Below, one piece after another: positions 1 to 8,628 of a stretch of DNA of 22,812 nt. Origin of the DNA: a virus (taxonomy: Duplodnaviria; Heunggongvirae; Uroviricota; Caudoviricetes); the IMG/VR virus record IMGVR_UViG_2563367158_000003; one strand, written 5' to 3'. Position 1 is the first letter of the stretch; each line of letters starts with the position of its first letter. A program made the position numbers and the translations under genes. The notes below the pieces were generated by a model, which saw only the letters and a program-made list of their open reading frames with translations, had not been told where the DNA came from and searched no databases.

Positions 1-1098
1 TTAAATGCGCTGGTCATTTGATATAGGTAAAATGCTTGTAAAGAGTTTTTCGTCATATAGTGCGTACTCAGGTATGTAATCACTGCTTTTACCTGTTTGG
101 AAGATAGAGGGGTCCTTGTCGATTAAAACATATAACTCAATGAGAATATTTCTTAGTCCCCAAAGCATTTGCTTTAGTTGTTTTTCATCATTGAATGAGA
201 TGCTTATGGCTTCCGTATCTGGTTTTGGATGTTCAGGAATTATTGAGAAAAGATGTTCTTGGTATTTATAATCAATTCCAAGTAGTCTGCAAAGTTGAAT
301 TATGTTTGATTCTATGAGTTGTAGGCTAACTAATTGGTTGTCATGATTTTTTTTGTTGGACTTAAGCGATTTGTTTATGTTGTTATAATGATTTGTTGTT
401 TTTCGAATAAAATCTTCTTCGACAGCGGTGCTATAGCCATTATCAATGGAAGATGATTTGAAAATATTTTTATAAAGAGTGTACGGATGAACTACAGATA
501 GTTCAATACTGTCTATATCACTAGTTTCTTTATTTAATCTTGATAATTTAAATGTTGGTAGTGTTTGGAATATATCAGCGAAGCTTTTCAGATGTGAGTA
601 ATATGAATCAGTGGTGTTTTTTTCAATAACAAGATTGATTTGCTTTTGTGTTTTTTCTATTTGGTTCTCTGTTTGTGTGGTTCTATGTATATTGTTGACG
701 ATTGCTGCAAGAGGTACCGAAGAAGCTAAAATAAATAATGGCAATTTAGAGATGTCAAGAAAGTGATTAAAACCGTCTGATGTGAAATTTAAATCGTGGC
801 CTTTCCAAGCCCAGAGGCCATACAAAACAAACATTTTTAACGGTACGATAATAGATGCTATGAATAATGGTTGTTTTAATAGATTTTTCTCATTTAGTTT
901 AAGCCAATTGAAGCAATAGAACATAAGTATCAATCCAAGTATATAAGCTACACTAAAGAAGATAAAAACTCTTGGACGATTAGTGTATATCAATGCTAAG
1001 GCAATTAAGATAGTAATGATTGCGTAGGTAATGATTAATGTGAGCTTTTTTTTCATTCTATTAAACCAAATTATGTAAAGGATTTTTTGTAACAGCAT
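1..1098 (-). CDS. Hypothetical membrane-anchored protein (365 aa; about four N-terminal hydrophobic helices, then a roughly 230 aa soluble domain of unknown function); possible cargo gene
   Basis: Complete ORF with stop at 1-3 on the minus strand. Hydrophobic segments TLIITYAIITILIALALIY, VFIFFSVAYILGLILMFYCF, IASIIVPLKMFVLYGLWAW and LPLFILASSVPLAAIV are visible in the translation. The region is visibly AT-rich relative to the phage backbone. An alternative in-frame ATG at 1054-1056 lies 4 nt after the int stop (1061-1063). No family recognised. Confidence 0.55.
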   Translation of the reverse strand: MLLQKILYIIWFNRMKKKLTLIITYAIITILIALALIYTNRPRVFIFFSVAYILGLILMFYCFNWLKLNEKNLLKQPLFIASIIVPLKMFVLYGLWAWKGHDLNFTSDGFNHFLDISKLPLFILASSVPLAAIVNNIHRTTQTENQIEKTQKQINLVIEKNTTDSYYSHLKSFADIFQTLPTFKLSRLNKETSDIDSIELSVVHPYTLYKNIFKSSSIDNGYSTAVEEDFIRKTTNHYNNINKSLKSNKKNHDNQLVSLQLIESNIIQLCRLLGIDYKYQEHLFSIIPEHPKPDTEAISISFNDEKQLKQMLWGLRNILIELYVLIDKDPSIFQTGKSSDYIPEYALYDEKLFTSILPISNDQRI

Positions 1099-2077
1099 CT
1101 TCTAGATGGTCTGGAGAAAAGTGTGCGTAAACCATCGTCATTTTTATATCGGCATGGCCCAATATTTCTTTAAGGACAAGAATATTCCCGCCATTCATCA
1201 TAAAATGACTGGCGAATGTATGACGCAGCACGTGGGTGCATTGGCCCTCTGGTAGCTCGATGCCTGCTCGCTTTACTGCTCGTTCAAAGGCTTTTCTGCA
1301 CGGTGTGAATAGTTTCCCTCTGTTCTTGGGGAGTTCATCATACAGATTTTGAGATATCGGCACGGTACGATTTTTCTTACCTTTTGTCTTGGTATAGGTG
1401 ATCCGGTATTTTGATAACTGATGGCCCTGCAAGTTTTCTGCTTCACTCCATCGCGCACCAGTAGCCAGGCATATTTTTGCAATCATTAGTAGGCTGGTGT
1501 TTTGAGATTCGGCGCAGGCATTAAGCAGGCGTTTGATTTCGTCCGTGGAAAGAAAAGCCAATTCACCTTCAGCAATTTTGAAGGTTGGAAGCCCTGCCAG
1601 CGGGTTTGGTGCGGACCAGTGCCCTAGTTTTTTCAATGTACCGAACACCGATGACAGGTTACGCTGCTCAAGATTAACTGTGCGAGGTTTAACGGGTGAC
1701 ATGAACGAGCCGTCTTCATTTTGGACCTCCCCCTTTAATCTGGCTTCCCGATATTTTGTGAAATCACCTGCTGTCAGCTCAGAGGCGATGGGATCGCCTA
1801 GACCATTACAGATAATTCTAAGTTTCGCCATCAGGCGTTTGGGGTCTGCGAGTGTTTGACCATATAGGGAATACCACTGCTCAATCACTTCTGATAATCG
1901 CCGCCGATCTTCCTTCTCACCAAGCCATGGCTTTTTGTTTACTTCGTCCATGGTGAAGCTTTCAAATGCAATGGCTTCGCCTTTGGTAGCAAATTGCTTA
2001 CGCACGCGCTTACCATTGCGTCCATTGGGATAGCACTCACACAACCATTTTCCGTTCGGCTGTTTTCTGATGGTCAT
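1061..2077 (-). CDS. int: Phage tyrosine integrase (P2/186 Int family)
   Basis: 338 aa; ATG at 2075-2077 (minus strand). C-terminal catalytic region with R...H-x-x-R...Y (HVLRHTFASHF ... MTMVYAHF) typical of tyrosine recombinases; sits directly downstream of the repressor as in the 186 cI-int operon. Confidence 0.93.
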   Translation of the reverse strand: MTIRKQPNGKWLCECYPNGRNGKRVRKQFATKGEAIAFESFTMDEVNKKPWLGEKEDRRRLSEVIEQWYSLYGQTLADPKRLMAKLRIICNGLGDPIASELTAGDFTKYREARLKGEVQNEDGSFMSPVKPRTVNLEQRNLSSVFGTLKKLGHWSAPNPLAGLPTFKIAEGELAFLSTDEIKRLLNACAESQNTSLLMIAKICLATGARWSEAENLQGHQLSKYRITYTKTKGKKNRTVPISQNLYDELPKNRGKLFTPCRKAFERAVKRAGIELPEGQCTHVLRHTFASHFMMNGGNILVLKEILGHADIKMTMVYAHFSPDHLEDAVTKNPLHNLV

Positions 2078-2080
2078 AAG

Positions 2081-2713
2081 TTAGAGGTTCTTGATTACTT
2101 TGACTGCACGTCCTACGACTTCCACATCATCTACAGAACATTCAAATGAAGTGTCATCTTGGTTAACTACTATTTTGTTTCCGGGTATGCGCGCAATTTT
2201 GACGATGCTTTTAACTCCGTCCATATCGACTAACCAGAAGCCATTACTGACTTGTTTAACGGACGTATCCACTACAAAGCTATTATTAGCTGTTTTAACA
2301 AATAAAGCGTTGGATGAGTCACCATCGAGCAGGCTGCTATCAAGAAGAATTTCATCACTTGCCTGCAGTTCGCCGTTCTTCAGTTCAACACGTTTGATGC
2401 TAGGAGCAACGATCTTAGAAAGTGGTCTTACAGTGACGGGAGGTTCATTTTTGAGATTTGTATCTTCGTTCTCACACGCATACATATCTCCTTGACCAGT
2501 AGCCAGCCATAGAAGGGAAACTCCTGTTTCAAGGGCACATTGAATTACCCATTCGGCAGGAAAGCTATCCCTTAAGTATCTGTTAGCCATAGTGCTTTTG
2601 GATACCTCCAGATGTTCGCAGAGCTGCTGTCGTGAGCTGAAGTTGTAAGCCTTAATAAGCCTGTTAATTGCATCGCGCCCACCACTATCATTTCCCGCCT
2701 TGATCAAACTCAT
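2081..2713 (-). CDS. cI: CI-type immunity repressor (186 CI-like, N-terminal HTH)
   Basis: ORF track starts at a TTG (2719); the first ATG is at 2711-2713, giving about 210 aa. Helix-turn-helix-like segment near the N-terminus; position between int and the divergent early operon. Stop is 3 nt before the int start. Confidence 0.8.
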   Translation of the reverse strand: MSLIKAGNDSGGRDAINRLIKAYNFSSRQQLCEHLEVSKSTMANRYLRDSFPAEWVIQCALETGVSLLWLATGQGDMYACENEDTNLKNEPPVTVRPLSKIVAPSIKRVELKNGELQASDEILLDSSLLDGDSSNALFVKTANNSFVVDTSVKQVSNGFWLVDMDGVKSIVKIARIPGNKIVVNQDDTSFECSVDDVEVVGRAVKVIKNL

Positions 2714-2724
2714 AATCAAACCCC

Positions 2725-2753
2725 TTGACGTATATAAAAAGTGATCCTAATAT
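2725..2753 (+). promoter_or_regulatory. Sigma70-type early (lytic) promoter, pR-like: -35 TTGACG (2725-2730), 17 nt spacer, -10 TAATAT (2748-2753)
   Basis: Near-consensus hexamers with optimal spacing read directly from the sequence, about 75 nt upstream of the apl-like start at 2830. Confidence 0.55.
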
Positions 2754-2829
2754 CCATTTATGGTTTGAAAAGCAAAACCAAACCACATAAAACAAGATAA
2801 AACGAAACCAAACTAAGAGATACTGCACT

Positions 2830-3072
2830 ATGAGTACTGATATTTCAATTCGTGTACCAAAAGAGATGGCTACGCCTGCAGAGTTCGCGGAATGGGAAGG
2901 TATCTCCCGCGGCTCCGTGTATCAAAAAATTCACCATGGTCAGCTTGCTAAATACATGGTCAAGAAAGAAAAAAACAAAGGCCGCGTAAGCCTGCGTTAT
3001 TTAATGTACAAAACCGATCAGGTCCGTGAATCCCTCGGTCATTCCAACTTCCGCGTCATTGTTGGTAAGTAA
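2830..3072 (+). CDS. apl: Apl/Cox-like excisionase and switch regulator (small HTH protein)
   Basis: 80 aa, first gene of the rightward operon opposite cI, as for 186 apl / P2 cox; HTH-like stretch AEFAEWEGISRGSVYQKI. Assignment is by position and size. Confidence 0.55.
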   Translation: MSTDISIRVPKEMATPAEFAEWEGISRGSVYQKIHHGQLAKYMVKKEKNKGRVSLRYLMYKTDQVRESLGHSNFRVIVGK

Positions 3073-3104
3073 GTTCAATTATGAGAACTTTCTAAGGGGG
3101 TAGC

Positions 3105-3614
3105 ATGTTTGATTATAAGATTTCCAAACACCCGCATTTTGATGAAGCCTGTAGAGCTTTTGCACTTCGTCACAATATGGCGAAGCTGGCAGAACGTGCA
3201 GGAATGAATGTCCAGACTCTGCGAAACAAACTCAACCCAGATCAACCGCATCAGCTCAATGCGCCAGAAATCTGGCTGCTTACCGATCTGACTGAAGATT
3301 CAACGCTGATAGATGGTTTTCTGGCACAGATTCACTGCCTGCCATGTGTACCGATTAATGAGGTAGCAAAAGAGAAACTGCCGCATTACGTCATGAGTGC
3401 AACCGCAGAGATCGGGCGTGTTGCTGCAGGTGCGGTATCTGGCAATGTAAAAACCAGTGCAGGTCGTCGTGATGCTATCAGCAGCATTAACTCTGTAACA
3501 CGACTGATGGCGCTGGCTGCTGTTTCATTGCAGGCCCGTTTACAGGCTAACCCGGCGATGGCGAGTGCAGTTGATACCATGACTGGCCTTGGTGCTTCAT
3601 TCGGTTTGCTGTGA
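3105..3614 (+). CDS. cII: CII-like lysogeny establishment regulator (186 CII family)
   Basis: 169 aa, the length I recall for 186 CII; position immediately after apl; strong RBS (AAGGGGG) upstream of the ATG at 3105. Confidence 0.7.
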   Translation: MFDYKISKHPHFDEACRAFALRHNMAKLAERAGMNVQTLRNKLNPDQPHQLNAPEIWLLTDLTEDSTLIDGFLAQIHCLPCVPINEVAKEKLPHYVMSATAEIGRVAAGAVSGNVKTSAGRRDAISSINSVTRLMALAAVSLQARLQANPAMASAVDTMTGLGASFGLL

Positions 3615-4655: not shown

Positions 4656-5509
4656 GCACCATCCTGAAATGGGCGGGAAATAAAACCGCCATTATGTCCG
4701 AACTGAAAAAGCATCTTCCTGCTGGCCCGCGACTGGTTGAACCTTTCGCGGGTTCCTGTGCAGTGATGATGGAGACGGAGTACCCCAGCTATCTTGTTGC
4801 GGATATTAATCCTGATTTAATCAACCTCTATAAAAAGGTTGCTGCTGATTGTGAATCGTTTATATCTCGCGCCAGAGCTTTATTTGAGGAAGCAAACAGG
4901 GAGGTGGCTTATTACAACATAAGGCAGGAGTTTAATTACTCAACTGAAATTACTGATTTCATGAAAGCGGTATATTTCCTGTATCTCAATCGTCACGGTT
5001 ACCGTGGTTTATGTCGCTATAACAAGAGCGGGCATTTCAACATTCCCTACGGTAATTATAAAAATCCGTATTTCCCTGAAAAAGAAATTCGCGCATTTGC
5101 AGAAAAAGCCCAGCGAGCAACGTTTATCTGCGCCAGCTTTGATGAAACGCTGGCGATGTTGAAGGCGGGGGATGTGGTGTATTGCGATCCGCCGTATGAC
5201 GGTACGTTTTCCGGCTATCACACTGATGGTTTCACTGAAGATGACCAGTATCACCTGGCATCCGTTCTTGAACATCGGTCATCAGAAGGACATCCGGTCA
5301 TTGTTTCTAACAGTGACACATCCCTGATCCGTTCGTTGTATCGCAATTTCACCCACCACTACATCAAAGCAAAACGCAGCATCGGTGTGGCAGCTGGCGA
5401 GGGTAAATCAGCAACAGAAATCATTGCTGTTTCCGGGCCGCGCTGCTGGGTGGGATTTGATTATTCGCGTGGCGTGGACAGTTCTGCCGTGTACGGAGTA
5501 CGTGCATGA
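4652..5509 (+). CDS. dam: DNA adenine methyltransferase (Dam-like, N6-adenine)
   Basis: Start chosen at ATG 4652 ([11 protein letters not shown]..., typical Dam N-terminus) rather than the track's upstream start; AdoMet motif EPFAGSCAV and catalytic DPPY ([10 protein letters not shown]) present. Start overlaps the upstream stop (ATGA). Confidence 0.9.
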
Positions 5510-7920
5510 GTCATGCCGATATGAACAACTGCTGCGGCTTTAACGAGGCTGCCGCAGCATTCTCATGGAACAGCCCGAAAAAGGCCATTAACCCTTATCT
5601 GGACCCGGCGGAAGTTGCGCCGGTTTCTGCGCTTTCAAACCTGATCACTCTGTACGCTGCCGATAACGAGCAGGAACAACTGCGCCGCGAGGCACTGAGT
5701 GATCAGGTCTGGGAGCATTATTTCTTTAATGAATCCCGTGATCCTGTCCAGCGCGAAATGGAGCAGGATAAGCTAATTAGCCGGGCAAAGCTGGCGCATG
5801 AGCAGCAGCGTTTTAATCCGGACATGGTCATTCTGGCGGATGTCAACGCCCAGCCTTCCCATATCAGCAAGCCGCTGATGCAACGTATTAAATACTTCAG
5901 CAACCTGGGCAGGCCAAAGGCTTATTCCCGCTATTTGCGTGAGACGATTAAGCCATGCTTGGAACGACTGGAGCATGTACGCGACAGCCAGCTATCTGCA
6001 TCTTTTCGTTTTATGGCAAGCCATGAAGGGCTGGACGGTCTGCTGATCCTGCCTGAAATGAGTCAGGATCAGGTGAAACGCCTGTCCACCCTTGTCGCTG
6101 CGCATATGAGCATGTGTCTTGATGCCGCTTGTGGTGATTTGTACGCCTCCGATGATGTTAAGCCGGAAGAAATCCGCAAGACATGGGAAAAGGTGGCAGC
6201 AGAAACCCTGCGACTGGATGTCATACCGCCTGCGTTTGAGCAACTCCGCCGGAAAAGAAACCGCCGCAAACCTGTGCCCTATGAACTCATTCCGGGTTCG
6301 CTGGCGCGTATGCTGTGCGCCGACTGGTGGTATCGGAAATTATGGAAGATGCGTTGCGAATGGCGGGAAGAGCAGTTGCGTGCTGTCTGTCTGGTCAGCA
6401 AAAAAGCATCTCCCTATGTCAGCTATGAAGCCGTGATGCATAAACGTGAGCAGCGCCGTAAGTCGCTGGAGTTTTTCCGTTCTCATGAACTGGTGAACGA
6501 AGACGGCGACATGCTGGACATGGAGGATGTGGTAAACGCCAGCAGCAGCAACCCGGCGCATCGCCGCAATGAGATGATGGCCTGCGTTAAAGGTCTGGAG
6601 CTTATCGCGGAAATGCGTGGTGACTGCGCCGTTTTCTACACCATCACCTGTCCGTCACGTTTCCATTCCACGCTAAATAACGGCAGGCCAAACCCGACCT
6701 GGACCAACGCGACAGTAAGACAAAGCAGCGATTATCTGGTCGGCATGTTTGCTGCATTTCGTAAGGCTATGCACAAAGCCGGATTGCGCTGGTATGGCGT
6801 GCGGGTGGCTGAGCCGCATCATGACGGTACAGTTCACTGGCACCTGTTGTGTTTTATGCGCAAAAAAGATCGCCGCGCCATTACTGCTTTGTTGTGTAAG
6901 TTTGCCATTCGTGAAGACCGCGAGGAGCTGGGGAATAACACGGGACCACGCTTTAAGTCTGAGTTGATTAACCCGCGCAAAGGAACGCCGACAAGCTACA
7001 TCGCGAAATATATCAGCAAGAACATTGACGGGCGTGGTCTGGCTGGCGAGATCAGCAAGGAAACGGGTAAATCTCTGCGTGATAACGCTGAATACGTGAA
7101 TGCCTGGGCGTCTTTGCATCGTGTTCAGCAATTCCGCTTCTTTGGCATTCCGGGGCGTCAGGCTTACCGTGAACTGCGATTGCTGGCTGGTCAGGCGGCA
7201 AGGCAGCAGGGTGACAAAAAAGCAGGTGTGCCGGTACTGGATAACCCGCGCCTTGATGCCATTCTGGCTGCTGCTGATGCTGGTTGTTTTGCCACCTATA
7301 TCATGAAGCAGGGAGGTGTACTGGTTCCCCGTAAATATCACCTCATCAGAACTGCTTATGAAATTAACGAAGAGCCGACCGCCTATGGCGATCACGGTAT
7401 TCGTATTTATGGCATCTGGTCACCCATTGCAGAGGGCAAGATCTGCACTCATGCAGTGAAGTGGAAAATGGTTCGTAAGGCCGTTGACGTTCAGGAGGCG
7501 GCAGCCGACCAGGGCGCTTGCGCCCCTTGGACTCGTGGCAATAACTGTCCCCTTGCTGAAAATTTGAACCAACAAGGGAAAGACAAATCAGCTGATGGGG
7601 ATACCAGGACGGACATTACCCGCATGGATGACAAGGAGTTGCACGATTACCTGCACAGTATGAGCAAAAAAGAGCGCCGGGAACTGGCTGCAAGGTTACG
7701 CCTGGTGAAACCGAAATGGCGTAAAGACTACAAACAGCGAATTACAGACCATCAGCGACAGCAGCTCGTCTATGAACTGAAGTCCAGAGGATTTGATGGC
7801 AGCGAGAAAGAGGTCGATTTACTCCTTCGCGGCGGCAGTATTCCGTCAGGAGCAGGCCTGCGTATCTTCTATCGGAACCAGCGTTTGCAGGAAGATGATA
7901 AGTGGCGAAACCTGTATTAA
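5506..7920 (+). CDS. A: Replication initiation protein A (rolling-circle nicking endonuclease, P2 gpA family)
   Basis: 804 aa; HUH-like motif (GTVHWHLL) and paired active-site tyrosines (YIAKYISK); follows the early operon as in P2/186. Start overlaps the dam stop (ATGA). Confidence 0.92.
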
Positions 7921-8014
7921 TTACGCGGGTTAACAATTCGTGCTCTTAATAATACCAGGCATATCAGGCTGATGAACGTAAAAAAACGTTTTACATCAGT
8001 AAGATTATTATATA

Positions 8015-8030
8015 CTGTAAATATAAACAG
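8015..8030 (+). promoter_or_regulatory. LexA (SOS) box CTGTAAATATAAACAG within a promoter-like AT-rich region upstream of the tum-like ORF
   Basis: Matches the CTGT-N8-ACAG LexA consensus exactly, with an AT-rich spacer; lies 44 nt upstream of the ATG at 8074. Phage 186 tum is known to be LexA-controlled. Confidence 0.7.
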
Positions 8031-8073
8031 TGGTTATACATACAGTATTTCTTGTGGTGTCATAGGAGGAAAG

Positions 8074-8262
8074 ATGCAGGACTATTTTTTGGAGTCTTTG
8101 AAGCTCCAGCGCATTGATTTTTTTCTTAAACTTGTAGCGGCTAGTGAGTGTAGTGATGAAGAGAAGGGGCTGGCTTTGCAGTGGGTTTCTGAACTGACAG
8201 ATGAACTCATGGCAAAAATCAGAACCCACGAATACAACCGCTCAATGGATGTCATCAGCTGA
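8074..8262 (+). CDS. Small SOS-operon protein (62 aa), possible N-terminal (antirepressor) part of a Tum-like protein
   Basis: ATG at 8074 with GGAGG upstream, directly downstream of the LexA box; the track's longer ORF from 7972 would include the operator, so the shorter start is preferred. Confidence 0.45.
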   Translation: MQDYFLESLKLQRIDFFLKLVAASECSDEEKGLALQWVSELTDELMAKIRTHEYNRSMDVIS

Positions 8263-8272
8263 GGTGACTTTT

Positions 8273-8506
8273 ATGCGCATTGAAATAATGATCGATAAAG
8301 AGCAGAAGATTAGCCAGTCTACCCTGGACGCCCTTGAATCCGAGCTTTACCGCAATCTGCGCCCCCTATATCCAAAAACGGTAATTCGCATCCGCAAAGG
8401 TAGCTCTAACGGTGTGGAACTGACCGGACTGCAACTGGACGAAGAAAGGAAGCAAGTGATGAAAATTATGCAGAAGGTGTGGGAAGACGACAGCTGGCTG
8501 CATTAA
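8273..8506 (+). CDS. DinI-family protein (77 aa)
   Basis: ATG at 8273 (MRIEIMIDKEQ...); length and sequence pattern resemble DinI (MRIEV...start, acidic C-terminus ending W-x-x-DD-W); second gene of the LexA-boxed operon. Confidence 0.75.
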   Translation: MRIEIMIDKEQKISQSTLDALESELYRNLRPLYPKTVIRIRKGSSNGVELTGLQLDEERKQVMKIMQKVWEDDSWLH

Positions 8507-8628
8507 GAAACGTTGCTGGCGTCTGAACTTGCTTCTGGCGTCAGCAAGGTTGAACAACGAGCTGTGCGAGGCGTTAGTTGATATAGTATCAATATATAAA
8601 AGGTTTCTCGAAGTTTTAAGGTAAGGTT

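Follow-up and report, generated by a model that had tools for sequence, protein, structure and literature searches.

A probable SOS-induction operon of the split tumA/tumB type in a 186-like P2-family prophage

The IMG/VR virus record IMGVR_UViG_2563367158_000003 (Caudoviricetes) is a 22,812-nucleotide (nt) stretch of DNA, hereafter the window, that represents a P2/186-like prophage with portal, terminase, and capsid genes. We analyzed a locus of the window where a LexA box precedes two short open reading frames (ORFs) lying in different frames, ORF1 of 62 amino acids (aa) and ORF2 of 77 aa (Table 1). Very probably, this locus is the operon for SOS induction of a 186-like prophage (P2 family, Fels-2/DuoHS type) and has the usual split two-cistron form, with ORF1 as the tumA-type and ORF2 as the tumB-type gene. 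In P2-like prophages of the Fels-2/PSP3 type, the SOS-induction module commonly has this split tumA/tumB layout, which has already been described. Our assignment is based on sequence elements, on homologies, on the conserved split, and on the purifying selection that acts on both ORFs, and the need of ORF1 for induction is taken from the literature on relatives. A previous reading made from the letters of the window (the sequence-only reading) had reported a perfect LexA box before a 62-aa ORF (8074-8262) and a 77-aa DinI-like ORF (8273-8506), and all three elements were recovered at these positions.

Table 1. Features of the SOS locus and of the surrounding prophage (positions of the window)
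Feature	Position	Strand	Remarks
Integrase	1061-2077	-	
186-type CI immunity repressor, presumed antirepressor target	2081-2719	-	maximal ORF; true start perhaps internal
Replication gene A	5506-7920		Pfam Phage_GPA, 1.4e-126
Putative -35 TTTACA of SOS promoter (186 p95 equivalent)	7990-7995	+	by analogy with 186 p95
Putative -10 TACTGT	8013-8018	+	overlaps LexA box 1; by comparison with 186 p95
LexA (SOS) box 1, CTGTAAATATAAACAG	8015-8030	+	predicted site; CTGT-N8-ACAG match
LexA-like box 2, GTGGTTATACATACAG	8030-8045	+	putative; one base common to box 1; colicin-type tandem operator
Shine-Dalgarno AGGAGG of ORF1	8064-8069	+	read from sequence
ORF1, tumA-type gene, predicted SOS-induced antirepressor	8074-8262	+	62 aa, ATG start, 189 nt
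Shine-Dalgarno GAGGTGA of ORF2	8261-8267	+	overlaps ORF1 TGA stop; read from sequence
ORF2, tumB-type DinI-family gene	8273-8506	+	77 aa, ATG start, 234 nt
Cargo gene 1	8629-9348	+	239 aa; N-terminal HNH motif (Pfam HNH, 2.4e-5; phrog_6544, 2.5e-111, unknown function)
Cargo gene 2	9769-10440	+	223 aa; no Pfam, PHROG, or PADLOC match

The DuoHS prophage of Escherichia coli HS has the same arrangement after its replication gene A, consisting of a 189-nt gene, a 10-nt gap, and a 234-nt gene (ECHS_RS04495, tum, and ECHS_RS04500, DinI-like), with ~97% DNA identity to the window over the promoter, operator, and both genes. It differs by a few point substitutions and by other cargo genes 3' of the DinI gene. 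The tum gene of DuoHS in the Phollow study is ECHS_RS04495, which we located as the 189-nt, 62-aa gene immediately 5' of the DinI-like gene. Its in-frame deletion abolished mitomycin C (MMC)-induced lysis and viral foci, and lexA(Ind-) likewise abolished MMC induction of DuoHS (PMC12055606). Salmonella phage Fels-2 (STM2728 and STM2726.1) also exhibits ~97% DNA identity to the window, with the same gap, frame relation, LexA box, and box 2, whereas its downstream gene encodes the 243-aa STM2726 and that of the window the HNH-like 239-aa protein. According to Lemire et al. 2011 (PMC3121763), the tum region of Fels-2 and PSP3 is split in two, and Tum resembles an antirepressor fused to DinI.

PSP3 resembles the window in having a LexA box, a 60-aa tumA, and a 77-aa DinI-like tumB after gene A, and its GenBank record describes tumA as 'similar to 5' end 186 tum; UV induction of prophage' and tumB as 'similar to dinI and 3' end of 186 tum'. 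PSP3 TumB is close to ORF2, with equal length, a conserved start, and the C-terminal WEDDSWLH. Unlike the window, PSP3 has a TumA that falls into phrog_1993, a 3-nt gap with both genes in the same frame, and a single LexA box. SopEPhi has the layout of the window with an 11-nt gap and, in the passage of PMC9827884 that cites Diard 2017, is said to be induced via SOS-driven Tum expression. Gifsy-1/2/3 likewise combine a LexA-controlled DinI homolog with a small antirepressor (gfoA/gftA) that acts on a non-cleavable repressor (PMC3121763); these are lambdoid phages with a reversed gene order, likened to the window here by description.

Phage 186 has in common with the window a LexA-repressed promoter with the -10 hexamer within the LexA box, the location after gene A, and the type of CI repressor, but its two modules are fused in one frame, its LexA box is single, and orf97 lies downstream. 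In the 186 record, Tum carries the annotation 'inhibits CI DNA binding'. Tum reportedly inactivates 186 CI by binding it, as Shearwin et al. are said to have described in 1998.

ORF1 is 98% identical to Fels-2 STM2728 and nearly identical to ECHS_RS04495 of E. coli HS. It matches phrog_698 (3.6e-38) and phrog_8554 (2.4e-8), and the N-terminal half of 186 Tum matches the same two families (6.6e-6 and 3.4e-12, respectively) as well as phrog_1993 (4.8e-23), the family of PSP3 TumA. In hhalign comparisons, the ORF1 family aligned collinearly with 186 Tum (E 7e-5, residues 3-42 to 3-42) and with an alignment of 186-type N-terminal halves (E 1e-4, residues 3-42/44), and BLASTP with the N-terminal half of 186 Tum detected the ESSI-2 homolog of ORF1 at 2e-7. 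The pattern R-[IV]-x2-[FI]-x2-L-x5-C-x3-[EDR]-[KR]-x-[LI]-A-L/I is common to ORF1 and the 186 Tum N-terminal half. These comparisons identify ORF1 as a remote homolog of the N-terminal half of 186 Tum, the relationship being distant yet consistent. The AlphaFold2 model of ORF1 is a confident two-helix hairpin (predicted local distance difference test score 90.8), in whose turn the conserved Cys lies. The dN/dS (ratio of non-synonymous to synonymous substitution rates) of ORF1 is 0.04-0.09, indicating purifying selection, and an AGGAGG or GGAGGG before its ATG is kept at related loci.

A 96-aa extension of ORF1 can also be read in the window (7972-8262, plus strand), from an ATG that lies 5' of the promoter and LexA box. 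Similar extended forms of 87-109 aa are found in many database entries and in the annotation of phage 500465-1. They are probably start-site mis-annotations. No fused close homolog of ORF1 was found among the 120 database matches listed, of which the longest has 109 aa, and the length of the longer entries is due to an upstream start call, 5' of the promoter. When the N-terminal half of 186 Tum served as the query, most of the database entries returned were short or truncated, with no full-length 146-aa form among the 120 listed.

ORF2 is a member of the DinI family. It matches Pfam DinI (PF06183) at 6.6e-23 over profile positions 1-63 of 63, with 81.3 bits against a cut-off of 24.2, phrog_189 at 1.5e-29, and the E. 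coli DinI structure (PDB 1GHH) over its full length (2.7e-6, residues 1-75), where the C-terminal ...QKVWEDDSWLH of ORF2 aligns to ...QETWESADDW of DinI. The ORF2 protein is identical to Fels-2 STM2726.1, for which a similarity to PSP3 TumB is noted in the record. It is 41% identical to residues 71-145 of 186 Tum (E 3e-24). Residue 71 of Tum corresponds to an internal GTG start, and the 76-aa product from this start is given in the 186 record as 'truncated Tum - modulates SOS induction'. The dN/dS of ORF2 is 0.05-0.10, again indicating purifying selection; for the two ORFs together, 11 pairwise comparisons gave an overall range of 0.04-0.10. The sequence-only reading was correct in proposing an operon that is tum-like and under LexA control, the second ORF of which is DinI-like. 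The sequence-only reading had associated a normal gene organization with inducible relatives of the same two-ORF layout and with a 186 Tum that aligns to only one of the ORFs. Such inducible relatives do exist, whereas 186 Tum matches in both halves, and the comparison indicates that 186 Tum unites in one protein the two modules encoded separately in the window.

Box 1 is the sole perfect CTGT-N8-ACAG in the whole 22.8-kilobase window, as determined by pattern search, and its 20-mer, TACTGTAAATATAAACAGTG, departs at 3 positions from the LexA consensus TACTGTATATATATACAGTA. For comparison we used 41 related loci, 10 from phages and 31 from species-representative bacterial genomes. An equivalent of box 1 (CTG-N10-CAG) is found at the same position in 186, PSP3, Fels-2, SopEPhi, ESSI-2, and 28 of the 31 genome loci. 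The promoter assignment is drawn from likeness to 186 p95: the -10 annotated for 186 p95 is likewise TACTGT and is placed in the same way with respect to the LexA box, and TTTACA, which is kept at most related loci, lies 17 nt 5' of TACTGT in the window, compared with TTCACA, 18 nt, and TACTGT in the annotated 186 p95. At the level of sequence, the putative promoter is thus overlapped by a LexA box directly 5' of ORF1, as expected of a Tum/TumA-type gene. A generic sigma-70 promoter scan did not call the SOS promoter, because TACTGT agrees with TATAAT at only 3 of 6 positions.

The 20-mer of box 2 has 5 mismatches to the LexA consensus. This box is kept in ~27 of the 42 operators that we tabulated, that is, in those of the Fels-2 type, and is not present among them at the 186, PSP3, ESSI-2, and Pantoea-type loci. 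The segment 8008-8053 shares ~85% identity with the colicin N (cna) and pesticin (pst) promoters, and its matches on hundreds of small Col-type plasmids, also of ~85% identity, are located in cna/pst promoters. With two 16-base-pair boxes that have one base in common and this likeness to colicin promoters, the operator at 8015-8045 is, judged by its sequence, a colicin-type tandem SOS operator.

The window also encodes a repressor of the type on which Tum acts in 186. The CI ORF matches Pfam Phage_CI_repr (3.9e-33) and Phage_CI_C (5e-40), aligns with 186 CI over 193 aa at 29% identity (E 1e-36), and contains no Peptidase_S24 domain in a Pfam search. The prophage has a presumably cognate 186-type CI that lacks the RecA-stimulated self-cleavage domain, as expected beside a Tum/TumA-type antirepressor, and by analogy with 186 biology this CI is the presumed target of ORF1. 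A Cox/Apl-like gene and a CII gene are found in the window as well. The locus lies directly 3' of gene A, as in 186, PSP3, Fels-2, and DuoHS, and the gene order of the window therefore places it where 186 has the p95 SOS operon.

The two-cistron form is found across the comparison set, where 186 is the only one of the 41 loci with the fused form. The two genes are separated by 10 nt, with ORF2 in relative frame +1, in Fels-2 and DuoHS, the same layout as in the window; by 11 nt (frame +2) in SopEPhi, SEN8, and Klebsiella ST437phi4.1; by 12 nt (frame 0) in Yersinia MLG42; and by 3 nt (frame 0) in PSP3 tumA/tumB. Among the genome loci, gaps of 9 nt (3 loci, frame 0), 10 nt (5 loci, frame +1), 11 nt (7 loci, frame +2), and 12 nt (3 loci, frame 0) were found. 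Because the gap varies between 3, 9, 10, 11, and 12 nt, all three relative frames occur, and the frame relation to which the sequence-only reading drew attention is not conserved among relatives. The overlap of the open frames, where measured, is 62, 28, or 0 nt. Frame-0 loci have a stop codon between ORF1 and ORF2, and at the 11-nt-gap loci checked (the three phages named above) the ORF2 frame is open for just 42 nt 5' of its start. All 25 split loci with ORF2 have its own ATG after a purine-rich Shine-Dalgarno-like spacer, and in all relatives with a DinI cistron a purine-rich GGGGA/AGGGA/GAGG element occupies the 9-12-nt spacer. ORF1 is 62 aa long at 27 of the 31 genome loci, and of the 18 genome loci with ORF2, 15 encode a 77-aa protein. 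A total of 1125 of 5426 complete E. coli genomes contain the locus, where it is annotated as two genes.

ORF1 also occurs without a DinI gene, at 15 of the 41 loci (2 phage, 13 genome), where unrelated genes lie downstream. ESSI-2-type phages have the LexA box and the ORF1 homolog alone, and the N-terminal half of 186-type Tum is found as a stand-alone 63-aa gene with a methylase gene downstream of it. At three loci (L020, L030, and L045) the DinI cistron is truncated, to 28, 60, and 26 codons respectively, and the 62-aa ORF1 is intact, which fits ORF1 as the essential part of the operon. At three loci with no DinI gene (L025, L034, and L046), the sequence that follows the ORF1 stop, ..aggaacgttgctggcgt.., resembles the one after the DinI stop in the window, gaaacgttgctggcgtc (8507-8540). 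The DinI cistron looks as if it were a cleanly inserted or deleted module.

ORF2 is in the +1 frame relative to ORF1. A TGA at 8195 closes the ORF2 frame, which is open from 8198 onward, and both frames are open over 8198-8259; the overlap noticed in the sequence-only reading is thus real, its span of 8201-8262 being slightly displaced. A one-base shift within the overlap would give a product of ~143 aa, close to the size of Tum, which has 146 aa in the 186 record, and both the length that the sequence-only reading gave for Tum and the size it expected of a fusion were accurate. No canonical slippery heptamer (X XXY YYZ), of the kind that reading had in mind, is present in 8198-8259, which contains just an A5 run (GCA AAA ATC). 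The two heptamers that were found (T6 and T7 runs, at 8085 and 8118) lie 5' of this TGA, in a stretch that is closed in the frame of ORF2. The fold predicted at the junction (-12 kcal/mol, z -0.95) is not significant and is not kept in three relatives. A 6-base-pair hairpin (GTCATC/GGTGAC) at 8251-8268 of the window covers the stop of ORF1 together with the Shine-Dalgarno of ORF2 and has TTTTAT after it. This is the sole terminator-like match of the region and is absent from relatives with other gap lengths. We rejected this hairpin as an attenuator or frameshift stimulator, as it is weak, lacks significance, and is not conserved; it might make translation of ORF2 weakly dependent on termination at the ORF1 stop.

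The sequence-only reading had left three possibilities, a natural two-cistron operon, a frameshift-inactivated tum, and frameshift-dependent expression, and the first is the one that agrees with split inducible relatives, a variable frame, purifying selection, and the lack of recoding signals. Frameshift-dependent expression would mean that a programmed +1 frameshift or transcriptional slippage in 8198-8259 produces the ~143-aa fusion and that the fusion is the active antirepressor. The open overlap and the Tum-like size of the fusion speak for it, and GCA AAA ATC at 8212-8220 would permit re-pairing of tRNA-Lys in the +1 frame. It is nevertheless extremely unlikely, since homologs have ORF2 in any of the three relative frames, with a stop between the ORFs at frame-0 loci and the short 42-nt open stretch at the 11-nt-gap loci checked, and since ORF2 has a conserved purine-rich spacer and ATG of its own. 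The overlap lacks a canonical slippery heptamer, the junction RNA structure is neither significant nor conserved, more than a third of the loci have ORF1 without a DinI gene, and DuoHS induction is lost on deletion of the 62-aa gene alone (PMC12055606). None of the three hallmarks of a recoding site, a slippery sequence, a conserved frame, and a stimulatory structure or a second frame without its own start, was found. One may also imagine that in the 10-nt-gap lineage (window, Fels-2, DuoHS) a few ribosomes shift +1 at GCA-AAA-AUC (8212-8220) and yield an additional TumA-DinI fusion, a third product with its own regulatory role. We consider the chance of this minimal; the +1 shift is not conserved and is not required. 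A likelier peculiarity of Fels-2-type prophages may be colicin-like high-threshold induction via box 2, without a counterpart in 186 or PSP3. Box 2 suggests a higher induction threshold in Fels-2-type prophages than in 186, and the tandem box may perhaps set a tighter or later SOS threshold.

That the locus is instead the remains of a 186-like gene broken by an indel, in a prophage no longer SOS-inducible, might be concluded from the fact that the modules form one gene in 186 and here lie in different frames. This, too, is barely credible: the conserved lengths of 62 and 77 aa, the start signals of each ORF, and the low dN/dS of both are those of intact genes, and the layout is identical in phages that are inducible, namely DuoHS, Fels-2/PSP3 (PMC3121763), and, in the passage on it referred to above, SopEPhi. 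Neither relaxed selection nor a disruption relative to intact close homologs was detected in the dN/dS comparisons and among the 120 database matches listed. With just ~20% identity between ORF1 and the N-terminal half of 186 Tum, a recent disruption of a 186-type gene is not what is seen here. Very unlikely as well is that ORF1 has another SOS-induced role and that induction proceeds via a different gene, e.g., ORF2 or the cargo genes. ORF1 has no Pfam, PADLOC, or PDB match, and its homology to the 186 Tum N-terminal half is remote. Several points weigh against ORF1 as an antirepressor of the Tum type. BLASTP of ORF1 against 186 Tum and against PSP3 TumA gave no match, and homology was therefore argued via PHROG profiles, hhalign, and the ESSI-2 intermediate; the hhalign probability for the link to 186 Tum is just 55-63%, so that the link, made of profile and transitive matches, is of moderate strength; and the description of PSP3 TumA as an antirepressor goes back to a personal communication. 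BLASTP of the 186 Tum N-terminal half against PSP3 TumA likewise gave no match, and hhalign yielded no significant alignment between the ORF1 family and PSP3 TumA alone (E 0.036, probability 1.4%). Against a different role for ORF1 stand the loss of MMC induction of DuoHS on deletion of the near-identical ECHS_RS04495 alone, the 15 loci where a LexA box and an ORF1 homolog are followed by unrelated genes with no DinI gene, the three loci with a truncated DinI cistron and an intact ORF1, and the PHROG cross-matches that tie ORF1 to the families of the 186 Tum N-terminal half and PSP3 TumA.

The two cargo genes are placed between the tum operon and the portal gene. At the same position, Fels-2 has STM2726, phage 500465-1 a gene for a TIR-domain protein, and related locus L012 a DNA methylase gene; the presence of different genes in relatives indicates that the content of this cargo slot is variable. 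Terminator prediction gave no match between 8506 and 8629, and the cargo genes might therefore be co-transcribed with the SOS operon, as is orf97 in 186. In the record of phage 500465-1 (NC_049342.1), gene A is interrupted by IS21/IS100kyp-family transposase fragments (positions 1-3152), and this record probably represents a defective prophage.

If the locus is the split tumA/tumB-type operon, then in the lysogen LexA would occupy the promoter-overlapping operator, at box 1 (8015-8030) and probably also at box 2 (8030-8045), and cleavage of LexA after DNA damage would allow the operon to be transcribed, as the sequence elements and the analogy with 186 suggest. TumA and TumB would be translated separately, each from its own ribosome-binding site. 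The TumA-type 62-aa helical hairpin is expected, from the literature on relatives, to bind the 186-type CI that has no self-cleavage domain, whereupon the lytic promoter would no longer be held off and the prophage would be induced. The TumB-type DinI-like protein would act on RecA filaments and modulate the SOS signal, and it is likely dispensable for the switch, because many loci have no DinI gene.

The frame break between ORF1 and ORF2 implies neither non-inducibility nor dependence on recoding, and the locus needs no special explanation. Given the deletion of the near-identical gene in DuoHS and the common split layout, the prophage is to be treated as SOS-inducible. About one in five complete E. 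coli genomes has the split layout, and TumA and DinI appear as separable modules, fused in 186, adjacent in the window, and elsewhere represented by TumA alone.

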